48,041 nucleotides of DNA from a virus, in IMG/VR virus record IMGVR_UViG_3300028747_000001. One strand, written 5' to 3'. The notes under the pieces are model-generated. The model ran no database searches. It was not told the DNA's origin and saw only the letters and a list, made by a program, of their open reading frames with translations. The translations under genes and the position numbers were made by a program. This document shows, piece after piece, positions 4,784 through 48,041 of the stretch. Each line of letters opens with the position of its first letter. Position 1 is the first letter of the stretch.

Positions 4784-4812
4784 AGTATAAACCGTTACTA
4801 ACGTTCATGCAA
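4784..4812 (-). promoter_or_regulatory. Conserved promoter cassette overlapping the terL stop codon
   Basis: Minus strand reads TTGCAT-gaacgttagtaacggtt-TATACT. The palindrome is at 4790-4806. Confidence 0.65.
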
Positions 4813-6421
4813 ACAATGACGATTTCTTTTCCTGCGGTGCGTATAGGATCATCACAGAGTCCGCATAGTTCGGCGAGCGCGTGCCGTCTGGTGTCTTGTC
4901 GATGATCATCTGACCGGCCGTGTTGATGTCGTATGTCGGCTGTGACAGTTCTGCAACAAGCTTGGTCCGTACGTGCGGCGGTATCTGTTCGCTGATGCTG
5001 ATAAGTTCGTCAGGATCAAACACCGCGCCATCCACCACCGCGCGGTGCGTCTTCTCAAAGCGCATACGCAATGACCACCATGATTGTGCTTTCAGGTTCT
5101 TGAAGAAATCTTCGTTCTTGCGCGACCCGACACCACGGTCATCGCCTTTGTAGACCAGCGCGGTAGGGTTGACGACAGCACCACTACCTTTGAACTCAGT
5201 GAACTTGCGTTGCGATCCTTTGCGGTTGTCCCGACCGTTGATCTGCGCCGCGTCGCCGCGTACACCAGCGCCAAGCCCGTCGCCGTCATACCGGCAGTTG
5301 TCATAGTCAAATTCATCACAGCGCAGGAACGCCTGTTCCGTTGTCCAGAATATTGTTTTGCCCTGACCGCTCCAGGCATCTATGTGCTGTAGCTCGATAC
5401 CATGTCGACCGGCCCATGCGTTCAGGTCAAGTCCCTCATCCGCCACATCAAGCGCCGAACGACGTTCACCTTTGATCGTGATACCGAGCTTACGCGCAGC
5501 ACCGATGGCAGATTGTATCCATGCGGAAGGTATGACAACACCCTGCTTGGATGCTGAATAGTCAAGGTCAATTTCTTGCGCAACGATAAGCGGGTTAAGG
5601 TTCTCTTTCTGCTTTTCATACCATGCCTCATCCTTGCGCGGATCGTCACGCCACTGGAAGGTGAATACACGATGTTCGGGCCAACTGTGACGCTTCTCTG
5701 CGAACGGGTTGTCAAAGCCATTGACCGAACTGATGTCAATCAGGCAATTCGTGTTCTGTGACAAAGCAGCGTCGCTCAGTTGGGGCCGTTCAATAAACGC
5801 CGCTTCGTCACGGCAATAAATGGATGCGCGACCGCCCCGGCCGATGTTGTCGCCTGCTTCACCCCGGATCACTGCGCCAGTTGACGGTATCGTGATAAGC
5901 ATCGACTTGTCGCAGTCCCGTCCACCCATGACCCAACCGCCCCGGAACTCAACTGGCAGCAATGACAGGAACATGCGGATTTTGAAAAATAGACAGTCAG
6001 GGTCACCGGCACGATCAACAAGGATTTCCTTGCGCGACCCGAATCCGCCTGTGAACCCTTCGTTAGTAACGGCCAGTGCGGTGAACAGTGACACCATCAT
6101 CCATGAAAGGCCCATATCGCGCGACTTGTCACTTACTGCAAATTCTTTGGCTTTCCAACGCTCGATGACCCATTGCAGAAACTCACGTTGACGTGGGAAC
6201 AGGATCAACGGCAGCATGGCGGGGTACTGTGAGCCGACATTACGCGGGTCATACGTACATCCCCAATCTTCGATCAGGTCGATTGGATTGTGACGATAAT
6301 GCGTCAGGACCGCTTTAAGCAACGCCGGATCGGCGCGTAGCTGATGGAGCTTGTCGACGCGCCATTGAAAGATGCGCGAGTAGTCGGGAGCACGGAAGTC
6401 GTGCGCGTAGGGGTAGGGCAT
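4805..6421 (-). CDS. terL: Terminase large subunit
   Basis: 538 aa. Walker-A-like DKSRDMGLSW (the K-S/A-R-x-x-G-x-S variant typical of TerL) and a C-terminal acidic nuclease-type region. Confidence 0.85.
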   Translation of the reverse strand: MPYPYAHDFRAPDYSRIFQWRVDKLHQLRADPALLKAVLTHYRHNPIDLIEDWGCTYDPRNVGSQYPAMLPLILFPRQREFLQWVIERWKAKEFAVSDKSRDMGLSWMMVSLFTALAVTNEGFTGGFGSRKEILVDRAGDPDCLFFKIRMFLSLLPVEFRGGWVMGGRDCDKSMLITIPSTGAVIRGEAGDNIGRGGRASIYCRDEAAFIERPQLSDAALSQNTNCLIDISSVNGFDNPFAEKRHSWPEHRVFTFQWRDDPRKDEAWYEKQKENLNPLIVAQEIDLDYSASKQGVVIPSAWIQSAIGAARKLGITIKGERRSALDVADEGLDLNAWAGRHGIELQHIDAWSGQGKTIFWTTEQAFLRCDEFDYDNCRYDGDGLGAGVRGDAAQINGRDNRKGSQRKFTEFKGSGAVVNPTALVYKGDDRGVGSRKNEDFFKNLKAQSWWSLRMRFEKTHRAVVDGAVFDPDELISISEQIPPHVRTKLVAELSQPTYDINTAGQMIIDKTPDGTRSPNYADSVMILYAPQEKKSSLFA

Positions 6422-6427
6422 GAAAAA

Positions 6428-6452
6428 GGGCCATAGTTATGAGCTATGACCC
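6428..6452 (-). terminator. Terminator-like hairpin whose T-tract abuts the terL ATG
   Basis: Minus strand reads gggtcatag-ctcataa-ctatggccc (one mismatch), then TTTTTC, then ATG of terL. Confidence 0.4.
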
Positions 6453-6478
6453 TAGTGTAACGTCGGTGACGGTTTGAT

Positions 6479-6652
6479 CTAGCTATACAACTCGTCAATG
6501 GTATCGCGCGCTACGTTCCGGCGCAGACCATCAATTACACGAACGATAAGTACTGTTGAACCCTGCACGCTGTCGATGATCCACGAATCAAGCGTATCGC
6601 GTTCAAGAATGAGCGTATCGGGTTGGATAGGGATACGGATATCGGTCAGCAT
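6479..6652 (-). CDS. Hypothetical protein (57 aa), coupled to the repeat protein
   Basis: TGATG overlap with the stop of 6652-7446. This is the non-repeat C-terminal part of track ORF 6479-6898. Confidence 0.45.
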   Translation of the reverse strand: MLTDIRIPIQPDTLILERDTLDSWIIDSVQGSTVLIVRVIDGLRRNVARDTIDELYS

Positions 6653-7446
6653 CACATTTCGCGCAAAATCGTCAACAACGTATCGCGTTCGAATTGCCAC
6701 GCCGCCGACTCCGCCGCCGACCGCGCCGCCGACTCCGCCGACTCCGCCGACCGCGCCGACTCCGCCGCCGACCGCGCCGACCACGCCGACTCCGCCGCCG
6801 ACCGCGCCGACCACGCCGACTCCGCCGCCGACCACGCCGACCGCGCCGACCACGCCGCCGACTCCGCCGCCGACCGCGCCGACCGCGCCGCCGACCACGC
6901 CGCCGACTCCGCCGCCGACTCCGCCGCCGACTCCGCCGCCGACTCCGCCGCCGCCGCCGACCGCGCCGACCGCGCCGCCGACCGCGCTGCCGACTCCGCC
7001 ATTTCTTCAGTAGTGGTGTTTGTAAGTTCCGATTGGCAATAAGCGATGACACCTTGCAACGCGTTACGAACCTGTTCTGCATAGGGTTCGCTATTGTCTT
7101 TAAGACGCTCGATCTGCACTTTATGGCGAGCAATCGCCAAGTGCCATTTAACCGGCTCCAAATCCTTGCCGATCTGAACCGCGTCTAGCAAGTCGGTACC
7201 AAACTGCGGAGCTTCTGACTTCGGAATGCCTTCAAAAATTGAGTCAGCAAGACGAGCTAGCCATTCCGGCCAGCCAAGCTCAACAGGAAAGCGCGAATGA
7301 TCGTACTTGTTGAGAGTACAACCGACGAAACAACCGCGACCGTTGTCATACCCCGTACCCTGAATGACATCGTCAGCCTTGCGATGCGCTTCGAAACGGG
7401 CCTGATACTTCAGTTTTACTGCCGGATCATTGTGATAGGAAAGCAT
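6652..7446 (-). CDS. Protein with a globular N-terminal domain and a C-terminal (E/R/W)-S-A-(A) repeat helix (264 aa)
   Basis: It is the only frame through the array that carries a long non-repetitive N-terminal domain, and it starts at an ATG (7446). About 27 repeat units. Confidence 0.7.
   Translation of the reverse strand: MLSYHNDPAVKLKYQARFEAHRKADDVIQGTGYDNGRGCFVGCTLNKYDHSRFPVELGWPEWLARLADSIFEGIPKSEAPQFGTDLLDAVQIGKDLEPVKWHLAIARHKVQIERLKDNSEPYAEQVRNALQGVIAYCQSELTNTTTEEMAESAARSAARSARSAAAAESAAESAAESAAESAAWSAARSARSAAESAAWSARSAWSAAESAWSARSAAESAWSARSAAESARSAESAESAARSAAESAAWQFERDTLLTILREM
6698..7000. repeat. Tandem array of about 27 units of 9 or 12 nt, (GCC)1-2-GAC-(TCC|CGC|CAC)
   Basis: Parsed unit by unit from the sequence. 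All six frames are open across it. Confidence 0.95.
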
Positions 7447-7504
7447 ATTTTCACCTATGAAGAAAAAGTCCCGATCTGTGCAAGCGCCGGGAAACGGGGG
7501 TTAA

Positions 7505-11317: not shown

Positions 11318-11573
11318 CCCGTATCACAACAGGTTCGTCGTCATCAATCAAACGTAACTTCCATTGCTCGATGCCCAATTTATCTGACCACATGAGAACA
11401 AGTTCCGGCAAGTGCCGATGGTCATAGCCCTTAAAATCCTTGCCGTCTTCGACCACCCATGCAGGGCCGCGCGATGTATAGCCATGTTGCTCAACCAGCC
11501 GAACCACACGGTTGTGATTCTCATAGTGCTCACTGATAACGATTGCGGCACGTGCGCCGGGTTCCCATTTCAT
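11292..11573 (-). CDS. Hypothetical protein (93 aa)
   Basis: ATGA overlap with the terS stop. Confidence 0.55.
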   Translation of the reverse strand: MKWEPGARAAIVISEHYENHNRVVRLVEQHGYTSRGPAWVVEDGKDFKGYDHRHLPELVLMWSDKLGIEQWKLRLIDDDEPVVIRDGIEYVEA

Positions 11574-12385
11574 ATCGCCCCCTTCATCAGTTCCTGATAC
11601 TGTCGTGACGCCTCAAGCGGATCAACCGATACCACTGTAACCTGTTGCGCGCCCTGTGCGTTGATGCCGACCTGATTCGTTACCTGCACTGCTGGGGCGT
11701 CCTTGGCGATGTTGAACTCTTTGGCAAGCAGCGATAGCGCGTGTGCCTGGTCGCGCTGCTTTATCTCGATGCCGTCTTTCGTCACCTTCACACCAGCGAA
11801 CAGACGCTTCGCTGCGCCCCGCAATTTACGGGTGTCCTTGAATATCGTTTTCACATGACCTTCGCCCAGGCACTTAGGGCATTCCGGGTTAGGTGAACCA
11901 GTCACATCGAACCCATACCCGCCGACGTCGACCGGTAGCGGATCAAGTTCTAATGGCCCCTGCGTCATACCAATGTCACGGTTCTTTTCCCACTCGCTCT
12001 GCTTACGCGCGTTCCGGTCTATCGCCTCTGCCAGCGCAAAGCCGAACTCCGCGTCGTTTTTCCACTGATAGTGATATCCCATGCCCCAACAGTGACGGCA
12101 GCAACGAACCTGCACTTCTGACAGTTGGCTTGCATCGGCCGTTGCGATTTCAGTGATAAGGGCCAGAACACCAGCACGATCAATTGTTGCAACTGACACG
12201 GTTGCTTCGCGGGCATCTTGAACCCTCTGTTTTATCTCTGGCTTTTGCATCAACGTCCACGCGTTGTTGCTGATAGTTGATGTGAGCATGCGCCCAACGT
12301 CATATGCACGCCGATACGCTTCGGTGGCATTCCCCGTTTCGAGATATGCCAACACGAATGCATCCTGTTTTGGTGTCAATTTCAT
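11570..12385 (-). CDS. terS: Terminase small subunit with a Cys-rich C-terminal extension
   Basis: The N-terminus MKLTPKQDAFVLAYLETGNATEAYRRAYDV matches the Terminase_2-type HTH signature (LTPKQ..F...Y...GNAT.A). CxxC...CPKC pairs follow. Confidence 0.75.
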   Translation of the reverse strand: MKLTPKQDAFVLAYLETGNATEAYRRAYDVGRMLTSTISNNAWTLMQKPEIKQRVQDAREATVSVATIDRAGVLALITEIATADASQLSEVQVRCCRHCWGMGYHYQWKNDAEFGFALAEAIDRNARKQSEWEKNRDIGMTQGPLELDPLPVDVGGYGFDVTGSPNPECPKCLGEGHVKTIFKDTRKLRGAAKRLFAGVKVTKDGIEIKQRDQAHALSLLAKEFNIAKDAPAVQVTNQVGINAQGAQQVTVVSVDPLEASRQYQELMKGAI

Positions 12386-17654: not shown

Positions 17655-18472
17655 TGTGTTTGCTCCACGGGCAGGATGCTCACGCCGCGCACACCGGCCA
17701 GATTGCGGCGCACATACTTAAGAGCACTAGCGCGGTCAGGAAAGCCAAGATACTCACCCTCCGGCGCATCGATACGAAACCTGCCGGGTTGGGCCTTCTT
17801 GACACCCATCGCACCGTGTATTCGGCGCGATTGTTCCTGACTCACGTCATCAAGTGTCTGCTGGTCCGGTTCCTGTTCGACATAAATGAATTCAAATGTG
17901 CTGATAGAAGGATGCTGGCTACCATGCAACAGATAGTCACGGTATGTATGGTCGGTCTGGAACGGATCGCGCGACGGTGCACCACATGAATACGCGATGG
18001 CATCAATCCAACGGCCTGAAGCGACAGATAGCGCCTGCATTAGTTCGTGCATGGGCGCACGTTTTAAATGACCTTGCCAGTAGTCACTAAACGGGTCGTC
18101 GCGCTCGCTCATTTCTTTGACTGCCGACATGATATCAGCGCGAAGTTTCGCCATGATCGCATCGTTACCGTGACCGCCCCGGCATTCCAGGTCGAGCGAT
18201 ATGTAATCACCGTACGGAACGATGTTTATCGGCTGTTGCTGTGCGGTATATGTCACAGGCAAATCGCGAGCGCATACCGGTAACTCTGCCTCACGCAACG
18301 CATCCATATATTTCCGCATAGCGTTCAACGCGGCCGGATAACCGCCGACGTTCGCGACGAATGTGTCGAATTGAGCGGCCGGATATGACACGACGTAGCG
18401 GCGGTCAAGCGGGCTGATGGTAAAGCCGTTCGCAGCGGCAAAGTCTTTGGCTTCTTGTGCGGGAGTAGTCAT
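17651..18472 (-). CDS. Hypothetical protein (273 aa) containing the LDLECRGGHGND motif
   Basis: Long ORF with an ATG start. Confidence 0.65.
   Translation of the reverse strand: MTTPAQEAKDFAAANGFTISPLDRRYVVSYPAAQFDTFVANVGGYPAALNAMRKYMDALREAELPVCARDLPVTYTAQQQPINIVPYGDYISLDLECRGGHGNDAIMAKLRADIMSAVKEMSERDDPFSDYWQGHLKRAPMHELMQALSVASGRWIDAIAYSCGAPSRDPFQTDHTYRDYLLHGSQHPSISTFEFIYVEQEPDQQTLDDVSQEQSRRIHGAMGVKKAQPGRFRIDAPEGEYLGFPDRASALKYVRRNLAGVRGVSILPVEQTQ
18161..18197. repeat. 37-bp direct repeat, copy A (36/37 identical to 18536-18572)
   Basis: atcgtTaccgtgaccgccccggcattccaggtcgagc. Confidence 0.9.
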
Positions 18473-18484
18473 GATGGGATGTCC

Positions 18485-18841
18485 TTACTGTTTGGCGAGT
18501 TTGTCGCGCAGGTTGCAGAATGCCTGTGTGTCCGAATCGTCACCGTGACCGCCCCGGCATTCCAGGTCGAGCCACTTGTAAAGCTTGTCGATGCGTGGAT
18601 CACGACCTTGCACACCGTTGTATGACTCGTTCGGATTGGTCGTCATGACATCGTAATAGCGGATACCGTCCACGTCAGTGACAGTCTTGACGGTTGCAGC
18701 ACTCGCCGGTTGCATGTTGTACAGCCACACCGCCAGCACTGCAAACAGGATCACGCCGCGATGTTTGTCCATCCGGTACGCAAATGCGAACAAGGCGACG
18801 ATCAGCATGACCGCAACCAGTACCACAAGGGTAAGTAACAT
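18485..18841 (-). CDS. Membrane-anchored or secreted protein (118 aa) containing the LDLECRGGHGDD motif
   Basis: Start at MLLTLVVLVAVML... with GGAG SD, downstream of the promoter. Two N-terminal hydrophobic segments. Confidence 0.6.
   Translation of the reverse strand: MLLTLVVLVAVMLIVALFAFAYRMDKHRGVILFAVLAVWLYNMQPASAATVKTVTDVDGIRYYDVMTTNPNESYNGVQGRDPRIDKLYKWLDLECRGGHGDDSDTQAFCNLRDKLAKQ
18536..18572. repeat. 37-bp direct repeat, copy B
   Basis: atcgtCaccgtgaccgccccggcattccaggtcgagc. Offset 375 bp, same reading frame. Confidence 0.9.
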
Positions 18842-24564: not shown

Positions 24565-25617
24565 ATGGCAAAGGTTCAGTTCACAAGCCCCGTTGGTCGC
24601 ATCGTATTCGGTTCGGTATGGGATGGGTCGACCACCGATTCCAAGGGTCAACCGCGCGTCATAAAAAGCGGTCCTAACAAGGGTCAACCCGCTACGCAAT
24701 GGTCATTCGGCGTGGCGTTCCCGAAGGTGCTGGCGAATAGTGCGCCGAACGCGGAGTTCAACACTTTCCGTGCGATGATTCTCGATGCGGGTCGCGCCGG
24801 TTATCCGCAGTTTTTCAACGGCCCAATCGACCCGTTGACGGGTAAGCCAGGTATTACGCAAGGCGTCGTATTTGCCACCAAGATCAAGGATGGCGATGGT
24901 TTCGACACCAAGGGACAAGACAACAAGTTGAAAGAAGGTTGGGCCGGTCATTGGGTTGTTGTGTTTTCGAGCCAGTACGCGCCGCGTAATTTCGATCTGC
25001 AAATCGGGCTTGACCCGACGCAACAATTGCAGGACAAGACGCGCGTACTACCGGGCGATTATGTTGCGGTCTGCGGAACTGTTGACGCCAATGTCGGCGC
25101 GGAAACGCCCGGTGTGTACGTCAACGCCAACATGGTGTGTCTGGTCGGCGGCGGACCGCGCATTGTGAGTGGTCCAAAAGCGTCGGAAGCATTCAAGGGT
25201 GTCACGGCTGGTGCTTTGCCACCCGGTTGCGTGCCCGGTGCAAATCCGGCAAGCGTAGGGGCCGCTCCGTTGCCGCCCGCAACCGGTGTGCCCACGCCGC
25301 CTACACCCCCGACGCCACCTGTCGCCCACGATCCTATTGCGAAGGCAACCGCTGATGGATGGATAGTGCACCCGCAAGCACCGGGCTATCGGTACAAAGG
25401 TCAGGATGTCAAGACTGACGCAGAGGTTGCGGCGCTTTATCCGGCCCCTGCACCCGTACCGCCGACGCCACCTGTCGCACCCGTACCGCCAACGCCACCT
25501 GTCGCGGGTCCACAACTGACACCGGCAGCGTTGGCAGCAGGCTTTACGTCGTATCAGCAAGCTATCGGTAACGGTTGGGATGATACGATGTTGCGGCAAA
25601 GCGGTTATCTGGTCTAA
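24565..25617 (+). CDS. ssDNA-binding protein (T7 gp2.5-like/DUF2815-like) with a Pro/Thr-rich C-terminal extension
   Basis: The N-terminus MAKVQFTSPVGRIVFGSVW resembles gp2.5 MAKKIFTSALG.... Position in the module. Confidence 0.55.
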   Translation: MAKVQFTSPVGRIVFGSVWDGSTTDSKGQPRVIKSGPNKGQPATQWSFGVAFPKVLANSAPNAEFNTFRAMILDAGRAGYPQFFNGPIDPLTGKPGITQGVVFATKIKDGDGFDTKGQDNKLKEGWAGHWVVVFSSQYAPRNFDLQIGLDPTQQLQDKTRVLPGDYVAVCGTVDANVGAETPGVYVNANMVCLVGGGPRIVSGPKASEAFKGVTAGALPPGCVPGANPASVGAAPLPPATGVPTPPTPPTPPVAHDPIAKATADGWIVHPQAPGYRYKGQDVKTDAEVAALYPAPAPVPPTPPVAPVPPTPPVAGPQLTPAALAAGFTSYQQAIGNGWDDTMLRQSGYLV

Positions 25618-47418: not shown

Positions 47419-48041
47419 TTATTCGTCGTCATCGTTGAATCTGAAAATCGGCCGCATCGTACACCGGCAATATGGTGCCTGGCCGGGTATGCCTTTCTCG
47501 CCGGTATTAGGTCCGTCAAGGTGCGGCAGATTGTCGAAGCTAAATATTTTACCGTTCAATACGTCACGGTGATATTCGCGGGGGTGATTGCTACCCCCGC
47601 TATGCACCCATTCAAACTCTTTGACGCCCAACGCCTGCATACGCGCGGCGTTGATTCCGTTGTATGCCTTGCGTGTCTGGTCAAGCGCGACATTCTTTGC
47701 CCAATTCTTGACAGTCACGCCGTACTTGTCGAGTTCGGGTTTAAGGTCTGCCAGCCCCTGACCCGATTGAATCGAGCGCATCACCGCACCCTGTACATTA
47801 TCCAGATACTTTTCAGGGATACGTTTGATAAGCGCTACATTCTCCGCAACGCTGGCTGTCAGCACATCGCGTAGCTGGTCGTTGAAAACGTTAGTTTTTA
47901 GAACGTACTGACCACTCATTTCTTTAAGGCTGATATTCAACTTCTGTGCGCTATCCTTTTCCGCAGCACCGGTCATCTTCTCTGCTAACGGTTGCGCGAC
48001 AGATGCGAATAGTCTGGCAAACTTGTCGCGCATCGCATTTG
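47419..48041 (-). CDS. Mu F-like head morphogenesis protein, 3' part (same gene as 1-383)
   Basis: C-terminal ...HPREYHRDVLNGKIF...APYCRCTMRPIF matches the Mu F/SPP1 gp7 signature. 47915-48041 duplicates 1-127. Confidence 0.85.
   Translation of the reverse strand, partial: NAMRDKFARLFASVAQPLAEKMTGAAEKDSAQKLNISLKEMSGQYVLKTNVFNDQLRDVLTASVAENVALIKRIPEKYLDNVQGAVMRSIQSGQGLADLKPELDKYGVTVKNWAKNVALDQTRKAYNGINAARMQALGVKEFEWVHSGGSNHPREYHRDVLNGKIFSFDNLPHLDGPNTGEKGIPGQAPYCRCTMRPIFRFNDDDE
47915..48041. repeat. Terminal overlap, second copy of 1-127
   Basis: Identical 127-mer. Confidence 0.95.

Follow-up and report, generated by a model that had tools for sequence, protein, structure and literature searches.

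Why does a phage gene keep a long tandem array of 9- and 12-nt units inside its reading frame, and is it the protein or the DNA for which such an array is retained? The question is raised by a locus in IMG/VR virus record IMGVR_UViG_3300028747_000001, a stretch of 48,041 nt that was analysed as a whole and is called the window here. On its minus strand lies a gene for a protein of 264 residues, in which a repeat of the form (E/R/W)-S-A-(A) separates an N-terminal head domain from a C-terminal helix. As described below, the array is a protein-coding, in-frame minisatellite within a member of a very large and unannotated family of phage proteins, and in the genome of this phage species it forms the hypervariable part. 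The explanation that we consider best overall, with a probability of about 0.6, is that this coding minisatellite provides an alanine-zipper arm on a conserved head, that the array is turned over at the level of DNA, and that the protein has an early accessory role. The parts of the gene are as follows.

6652-7446, minus strand: gene for the 264-residue repeat protein, with its stop codon TGA at 6652-6654 (list of open reading frames; homologues).
7451-7456, minus strand: Shine-Dalgarno-like AGGTGA, 4 nt 5′ of the ATG (read directly from the sequence).
7012-7446, minus strand: N-terminal head domain, residues 1-145, mostly helical and conserved (AlphaFold2 and conservation among 384 sequences).
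6697-7002, minus strand: in-frame minisatellite of 27 units, (GAG, CGG or TGG)-TCG-GCG(-GCG), that is (E/R/W)-S-A-(A), residues 149-250 (Tandem Repeats Finder, codon table and length alleles).
6655-6696, minus strand: helix at the C-terminus (QFERDTLLTILREM), conserved and, in the prediction, docked on the head domain (AlphaFold2; conservation).

How can one be sure of the frame? The region from 6698 to 7000 is free of stop codons in all six frames, as a preliminary description of this DNA had pointed out, and this is a trivial outcome of base composition because the array is 85% G+C and every codon in it is NNG, TCG or GCG. The open reading frame (ORF) at 6652-7446 is the sole one with a long non-repeat part, and it is conservation that fixes the frame, since in every complete homologue inspected the C-terminal helix, with its nearly invariant L257 and L258, is in frame with the N-terminal domain whatever the length of the repeat between them. 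The reading frame proposed in the preliminary description is thereby supported. The identical 264-residue protein is encoded by 18 metagenomic contigs.

The single dominant array detected by Tandem Repeats Finder spans 6699-7000, with periods of 9, 12, 21 and 30 nt and scores of 141-271. If each x-S-A or x-S-A-A is counted as a unit, there are 27 of them, namely 15 four-residue units, 11 three-residue units and one RSAAAA, so that the first description of the array as 9- and 12-nt units encoding this motif holds. The variable residue x is E in 12 units, R in 10 and W in five, and a sixth Trp closes the array. What is most striking is the uniformity of the codons: all 12 E are GAG, all 10 R are CGG and W is TGG, while Ser is TCG at 27 of 27 positions and Ala is GCG at 45 of 46. 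In the genome overall, by contrast, GAA is preferred for Glu, CGG makes up only 15% of Arg codons, and G+C content is 55%. Such uniform codons within the array are a signature of DNA-level homogenisation. It had also been proposed that the three variable codons are single-nucleotide neighbours of one another, so that E, R and W could be switched by point mutation. The first part is not correct, as only CGG and TGG are such neighbours and GAG differs from each of them at two positions. The second part is unlikely to be the main route of change, because E is two substitutions away from R and W, codons intermediate between E and R or W are absent from this array, and the alleles differ chiefly through block rearrangements.

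These alleles are found among IMG/VR loci L001-L009, which belong to the same phage species and whose large terminase (terL) products are 99.6-100% identical at the protein level. The 264-residue allele is carried by the window, L001 and L002, the last with two substitutions that both fall in the array; an allele of 249 residues is carried by L003-L005 and one of 278 residues by L006-L009. Two further proteins, P0001 (221 residues) and P0002 (185 residues), look, by inspection of their sequences, like in-frame deletion derivatives of the 249- and the 278-residue allele, respectively. If the window is compared with L003 over 3.4 kb in total, the 749 nt upstream are free of mismatches, as are the 1,671 nt downstream, all of terL included; the 20 substitutions and 63 gap columns are all found in a patch of about 420 nt, which begins at codon 115, in the helix that precedes the array, and ends shortly after the array. 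All the observed indels keep the frame and the C-terminal helix. Different length alleles can even coexist, since metagenome 3300029951 holds both the 264-residue allele and the allele of about 250 residues carried by L004. Thus the in-frame expansion and contraction, and the polymorphism in unit number, that had been expected of the array are seen in silico, in alleles of 185, 221, 249, 264 and 278 residues; the order of the units is reshuffled between alleles as well. It is to be noted that 23 of 70 viral contigs end inside the array; assembly from short reads and gene calling both seem to be disrupted by the repeat. In one family member, P0169 (333 residues), the xSAA frame passes into an Arg-rich alternative frame (…VRRRVRLVRRQ…); this is a frameshift introduced within the array by sequencing or assembly, or else a naturally frameshifted allele.

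With homogenised units, in-frame copy-number alleles, and differences confined to the array region, the locus has the properties of a coding minisatellite, or variable number of tandem repeats (VNTR). In-frame coding VNTRs are known in microbes, for example as repeat-number variation in bacterial surface proteins, and these share with the present array the units homogenised at the DNA level, the in-frame gain and loss, and the coexisting length alleles. There are differences as well. The window protein is a cytoplasmic protein of the early region of a phage, with an N-terminus that, judged by eye only, has neither a signal peptide nor a membrane segment; its units of 9 and 12 nt do not allow on/off switching by frameshift; and its repeat has parts of a single fold on either side. 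The variable proteins of diversity-generating retroelements (DGRs) resemble the array in that variability is placed at particular codon positions of a phage gene. Unlike in DGRs, the variation here is not specific to adenine and includes large indels, and the genome has no template repeat. A DGR variable region was considered as a candidate and rejected, as the 48-kb genome contains the array only once and a scan with Pfam or PHROGs, which covered the larger ORFs and part of the small ones, did not yield a reverse transcriptase.

To what kind of protein does the array belong? With the N-terminal 149 residues as a query, 232 close homologues of 119-260 residues were retrieved at 54-97% identity, all of them unnamed metagenomic proteins, and a second word-indexed search with a distant member as query gave 1,347 further proteins; no match of either search was labelled with a Pfam domain or informatively named. 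When 1.84 billion cluster representatives (clusters at 50% identity) were searched exhaustively with a profile, 3,132 clusters matched at E≤1e-3, and 1,932 of them still at E≤1e-10. The complete members inspected share one architecture, consisting of an N-terminal domain of about 145 residues, an Ala/Ser-rich repeat of very variable length, and a C-terminal helix with WQFERDTLLxxLR or a variant of it. In a sample of 279 complete members, insert length varies from 3 to 125 residues around a median of 65, and in 72% of them the insert is at least 20 residues long and at least half Ala plus Ser. The commonest set of variable residues across the family is E/R/W, and others are D/R/Y or N/H/D/Y; every set includes an acidic and an aromatic residue, and most also a basic one. 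In some phages the family is represented by two paralogues, which are arranged in tandem or separated by a few genes (L047/L048 on one 79-kb contig, L048, L070 and L035).

Searches for something already named were negative throughout. Pfam, PHROGs, NCBIfam and PADLOC gave nothing significant for the protein and its neighbours; the 264-residue protein and the 57-residue product of the next ORF have no Pfam match at E≤1 and no match to a small-terminase PHROG; 106 diverse family members have no Pfam match either. PHROGs 3416, 18326 and 8332, all of unknown function, match a minority of diverse members. Sequence-profile searches of the PDB with full-length and N-domain alignments gave nothing below E=0.07, a DNA search against GenBank phages found no match, and literature searches on its peptide motifs and on the Xanthomonas phages with the gene brought up no account of the protein. 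The preliminary description had taken the N-terminal domain to be globular and of unknown function, and this agrees with the absence of any Pfam, NCBIfam, PADLOC or PDB match. Patterns of the close subfamily occur at only three loci among 185,579 species-representative genomes of GTDB, all three on contigs of metagenome-assembled genomes, and the close subfamily thus looks essentially viral.

If the array is homogenised as DNA, is it nonetheless selected as protein? In other lineages the same motif is specified by other codons, which are again internally uniform: TCA/GCA in L060-L062, L065 and L069, TCC/GCC in L018 and L057, and AGT in L070, while the Arg codon may be CGG, AGG or AGA. Since different sets of synonymous codons specify the same peptide, it is the peptide that is conserved and not a DNA word. 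On this evidence, selection is on the protein, and turnover on the DNA. The residues chosen point in the same direction. Of 936 variable positions, 753 are E, R or W; Trp takes about one quarter of the variable positions, and the residues one substitution away (L, V, M, A, T, Q, K and G) are rare, which argues for selection, on Trp especially. Adjacent units of the same type are depleted, to 0.74-0.87 of expectation, and E-R and E-W neighbours are enriched 1.2-1.4-fold, in statistics that rest on phylogenetically non-independent data.

The most serious rival, although we consider it unlikely, is that the repeat is a functionless filler, a slippage expansion tolerated in a permissive surface hairpin of a small phage protein that is ordinary in other respects, and that its length and order drift neutrally. 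It would account for inserts that range from 3 to 125 residues, for the few members which have no repeat or unrelated inserts, for an order of three- and four-residue units that is indistinguishable from shuffled, and for the lack of a conserved partner gene. It is weakened by an acid/base/aromatic-Ser-Ala-Ala motif that is kept, in different synonymous codons, across lineages whose N-domains are only 30-40% identical, by the frequent Trp and the rarity of other residues one substitution away, by the fraction of four-residue units (0.66) that matches an 11/3 helical period, and by the retention of a long Ala/Ser-rich insert in 72% of members.

Another possibility, a much more improbable one, is that the selected feature is the DNA itself, as a phased GC-rich repeat which serves as a packaging (pac) or terminase-binding site, an origin of the iteron-in-gene type, a phased bend, or a recombination hotspot, so that the peptide is incidental. 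The fully homogenised codons, an array of 85% G+C in a genome of 55%, a mean unit of 3.65 codons or about 11 nt, which is near the helical repeat of DNA, the position of the array about 280 nt upstream of terL in this phage, and a recombination breakpoint that adjoins the locus would all fit such a role. Against it, the DNA motif varies by lineage (TCGGCGGCG, TCAGCAGCA, TCCGCCGCC, AGTGCG...) while the peptide motif is kept, which is not what one would expect of an iteron-type origin or a pac site. Within the protein family, moreover, the place of the array is always the same, irrespective of where in the genome the gene sits, usually beside a primase and far from the terminase, and the observed indels all preserve the frame and the C-terminal helix.

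What would the arm look like? A monomer model was made with AlphaFold2 from an alignment of 55 sequences. For the 264-residue protein it has a mean predicted local distance difference test score (pLDDT) of 85.9 and a predicted template modelling score of 0.72, and it consists of a helical head (residues 1-141) and two long antiparallel helices (147-201 and 209-263), with pLDDT 97-98 at the C-terminus. The sole stretch of low confidence is the nominal turn at 197-212, the midpoint of the array. Gly and Pro frequencies are flat along the arrays, and 120 of 164 arrays have neither residue in their central 40%. Since no turn is encoded, a domain-swapped dimer is as possible as a hairpin: the C-terminal helix may return to a head by fold-back of one chain, or two chains may swap domains in an antiparallel dimer that has a head at either end. 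The preliminary description had imagined one long Ala/Ser helix with every E, R and W on a single face. The helical nature of the array agrees with the model, while a single helix is an incomplete description, since the C-terminal helix must return to a head, for which an antiparallel pairing is needed. The single face is not supported, because three- and four-residue units follow one another irregularly: for the x positions of this array the helical resultant is 0.31, against 0.32 for shuffled unit order, and the family-wide values are 0.62 against 0.59. Four-residue units make up 0.66 of all units (n=705), which gives a mean spacing of 3.65 residues, and this matches a hendecad-like, nearly straight period of 11/3 better than one of 3.5. 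Neither a regular heptad (3.5-residue) periodicity nor a defined turn was found.

Antiparallel two-helix arms are well known, examples being the arm of seryl-tRNA synthetase, the M-domain of ClpB, the receptor-binding hairpin of colicin, and the hairpins of Gre and DksA; the cytoplasmic hairpins of chemoreceptors vary in length by heptad indels. The predicted arm is like antiparallel two-helix coiled coils with 'Alacoil' packing in that two long antiparallel helices are predicted to project from a globular domain, that small residues are available for the helix-helix interface, and that length varies between homologues. Unlike these coiled coils, it has no heptad a/d pattern, encoded turn or conserved tip, and with a length of 0 to more than 120 residues, which varies even within one species, it cannot be a ruler of fixed length in the manner of Gre or DksA. 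Foldseek gave only non-significant matches (E>0.8) to some of these hairpin systems. Two known kinds would be combined here, a coding VNTR and a predicted antiparallel helical arm.

The head is predicted with more confidence than the array midpoint, with block-mean pLDDT of 88-98 over residues 1-150 except for a value of 75 for residues 31-40, and a short-arm homologue, P0012, is predicted to have the same head fold (pLDDT 89.5). When the two AlphaFold2 models were compared by Foldseek with the PDB, nothing was found below E=0.8, and with BFVD only one uncharacterised family member; the modelled head fold is therefore without a detectable solved relative. Nine residues, K11, R17, H21, D25, C39, C43, H50, D68 and E72, are 95-99% conserved in 384 aligned sequences. 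In the model, K11, Y14, R17/F18 and H21 are distributed over the length of the first long helix, and D25 follows shortly after it; C39 is at the start of a short helix that also contains C43; and a further helix carries D68 and E72, separated by one turn. As a hypothesis, it is reasonable to place in the head a metal site of the Cys2His2 type, with an acidic/basic pocket beside it.

Relatives in culture are known only from one group. In tblastn searches of GenBank phages, the family was found only in the Kantovirinae Xanthomonas phages phiXaf18, KPhi1, MYK3, BsXeu269p/3, NEB7 and XapPhi1-6, and the N-domain matches there have E=3e-15 to 2e-16 at 34-40% identity, those in phiXaf18, KPhi1 and NEB7 having E=3e-15 to 6e-16. 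The proteins that can be named are gp37 of phiXaf18 (YP_010052661.1; 284 residues), WHB31219.1 of NEB7 (327 residues) and K1pha_60 of KPhi1; the first two both have xSAA arrays and a C-terminal helix. The window protein belongs with phiXaf18 gp37 by homology of the N-domain, including K11, R17, H21, C39, C43, H50, D68 and E72, and by its architecture of a head, an Ala-rich repeat insert and a conserved C-terminal helix. Like it, the Kantovirinae homologues have (E/R/W/Q/D)-S-A-A arrays and the same kind of helix at the end, and like the window phage, their phages are of the myovirus type, with genomes of about 45-47 kb. They are annotated as 'hypothetical protein' or not annotated at all (as in XapPhi1, 2, 4 and 6), the papers on these phages do not mention them, and being uncharacterised they offer no function. 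In XapPhi1 and XapPhi2 (PP391659 and PP391660) the gene is at the very end of the record. In phiXaf18 it directly follows a VirE-type primase gene, and in NEB7 three small ORFs lie between the two. Whereas the gene follows a VirE/VapE-type primase in Kantovirinae, in the window about 15 small ORFs and the small terminase gene (terS) intervene and the gene abuts terL.

This position deserves attention, because the preliminary description had placed the gene, together with the next ORF, in the slot of a small terminase. The window is a complete genome of about 47.9 kb, with a direct terminal repeat of 127 nt at 100% identity (1-127 and 47915-48041), and is circular or terminally redundant as assembled. 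It encodes a portal, a prohead protease, a major head protein, a sheath, a tape measure and baseplate proteins, and, for replication, a helicase, a primase, an exonuclease, a Gp2.5-like single-stranded DNA-binding protein (SSB) and a DNA polymerase. The features around the repeat gene are these.

11570-12385, minus strand: genuine small terminase, TerS (PF03592 Terminase_2, 69 bits against a cut-off of 26, E=7.5e-19; phrog_51, E=3.4e-33).
6479-6652, minus strand: 57-residue ORF, whose ATG overlaps the preceding stop codon as TGATG (list of open reading frames, sequence reading).
6427-6453, minus strand: terminator-like stem-loop of 10 pairs followed by a T-run, between the 57-residue ORF and the start codon of terL (consensus scan only).
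4805-6421, minus strand: large terminase, terL (by sequence, P22-type nuclease domains matched in the PDB, E=1e-27 to 1e-21).

The order of genes is thus terS, which adjoins the primase gene about 4 kb upstream of the repeat gene, about 15 small unannotated ORFs, the repeat gene, the 57-residue ORF, the stem-loop and terL. The latter has no Pfam match, but its C-terminal half matches P22-type terminase nuclease domains (best E=1e-27), so both the placement of the array just upstream of terL and the TGATG overlap, which had been read as translational coupling, are present in the sequence as claimed. Between terS and terL lie about 5 kb of small ORFs with no annotation, and it is unusual for packaging genes to be split in this way. 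From the gene order and the stem-loop directly before terL, the repeat gene and the 57-residue ORF close an early or replication-side block of small accessory genes and do not open the packaging module. JGI gene calls on sibling contigs include both genes; among the fetched loci the 57-residue ORF has tblastn matches only in L001-L009, and adjacency to terL is likewise found only there, the gene lying beside replication genes elsewhere. Across 70 IMG/VR loci the neighbours vary widely and those which recur encode a PD-(D/E)XK nuclease, a DUF2815-like SSB, PolA and primase, and in L084 the gene is directly after the primase as in the cultured Xanthomonas phages; no partner gene is conserved across these loci, where both the +1 and the -1 neighbours vary. 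That the repeat protein and the 57-residue ORF would replace or assist a small terminase in packaging is hardly credible, since its sole support is the position of the pair immediately upstream of terL in this phage, and since a canonical TerS is encoded at 11570-12385, the repeat protein matches no TerS model, outside this species the gene is not beside terL and the 57-residue ORF is absent, and a terminator-like hairpin stands between the pair and terL. The repeat protein is not a terminase subunit, and the assignment as TerS was rejected on the lack of a TerS profile match, the other TerS in the genome, and the terL adjacency that is not conserved.

Some observations around the locus should be recorded in their own right. 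In L001 and L071, the DNA upstream of the boundary between the 57-residue ORF and terL is 100% identical, and that of terL has diverged by 3.5%, almost all of it synonymous; likewise, in some samples with the identical 264-residue allele the adjacent terL differs by 3.5%. Identical upstream DNA next to a diverged terL places a recombination breakpoint between the two genes. A C5 DNA methyltransferase gene (PF00145) is found 3-7 genes downstream in several unrelated phages (L075, L081, L083, L084 and others) and the window has none; a linkage to it was rejected, as only 9 of 85 loci have one in the fetched flanks. Elsewhere in the window, a 49-nt imperfect direct repeat with 90% identity (18158-18206 and 18533-18581) spans the boundary between ORFs of 273 and 136 residues in the early region, and a 27-nt tandem duplication (2.1 copies, 96% identity) lies at 25450-25505 inside the Gp2.5-like SSB gene (24565-25617).

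How might all this work together in the explanation that we prefer, the coding minisatellite for an alanine-zipper arm? The insert would form an uninterrupted helix with an acidic, basic or aromatic residue at every third or fourth position. It would pair antiparallel through its small residues, either with itself by folding back, as in the AlphaFold2 monomer, or in an antiparallel domain-swapped dimer, and the C-terminal helix would dock back on a head domain. With an Ala/Ser surface that is nearly uniform, any in-frame gain or loss of units could be accommodated by a new register in both models; because such a sequence can re-register, large changes in length may be tolerated and the length of the arm may evolve freely. 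The DNA of the array would be turned over by slipped-strand mispairing, unequal recombination or gene conversion. The head would be the working part, with a probable metal or active site made of H21, C39, C43 and H50 together with D25, D68, E72, K11 and R17, and the arm may be a spacer, an oligomerisation element or a variable surface. The gene stands in an early or replication accessory region, and the protein most likely acts on an intracellular target of the host or the phage, which its context suggests weakly.

Several points weigh against this explanation. Its functional part is drawn from genomic context only. The turn has a pLDDT of 41-54 and none is encoded, so that the hairpin may be an artefact of modelling a single chain. 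One family member, P0017, has almost no insert, and those of P0100 and P0197 are non-repetitive, from which the arm may be dispensable. The 264-residue allele is identical in nucleotides in at least five samples, and the array is thus not unstable on short timescales. Finally, the patch that diverges from L003 also covers about 100 nt upstream of the array, which fits the import of a cassette as well as slippage in situ.

What does such a repeat mean for the phages that carry it? The family, with more than 3,000 clusters, has no Pfam entry, solved structure or name, and it occurs in phages of soil, peat, groundwater and plant pathogens, including cultured Xanthomonas phages used for biocontrol, in which the hypotheses on the head domain and the arm are directly testable. 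The conserved set of His, Cys, Asp and Glu residues in the head suggests a metal or active site. A sole hypervariable patch in otherwise identical genomes is the pattern usual for genes in host-phage conflict, and one may go a step further, at odds well below even, to postulate a new class of phage early proteins with a 'register-free' alanine zipper, whose length and surface are under diversifying selection against a host target or defence. The surface would then carry a code of acid, base and aromatic residues, and the length of the arm, or the head-to-head distance of a dimer, could shift in single recombination steps without misfolding. If this were true, the array would be an intracellular hypervariable determinant, made by a minisatellite, with a role comparable to that of DGR targets or tail-fibre tips. 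The repeat also shows how a low-complexity helix tolerates arbitrary in-frame indels, which is relevant to protein design.

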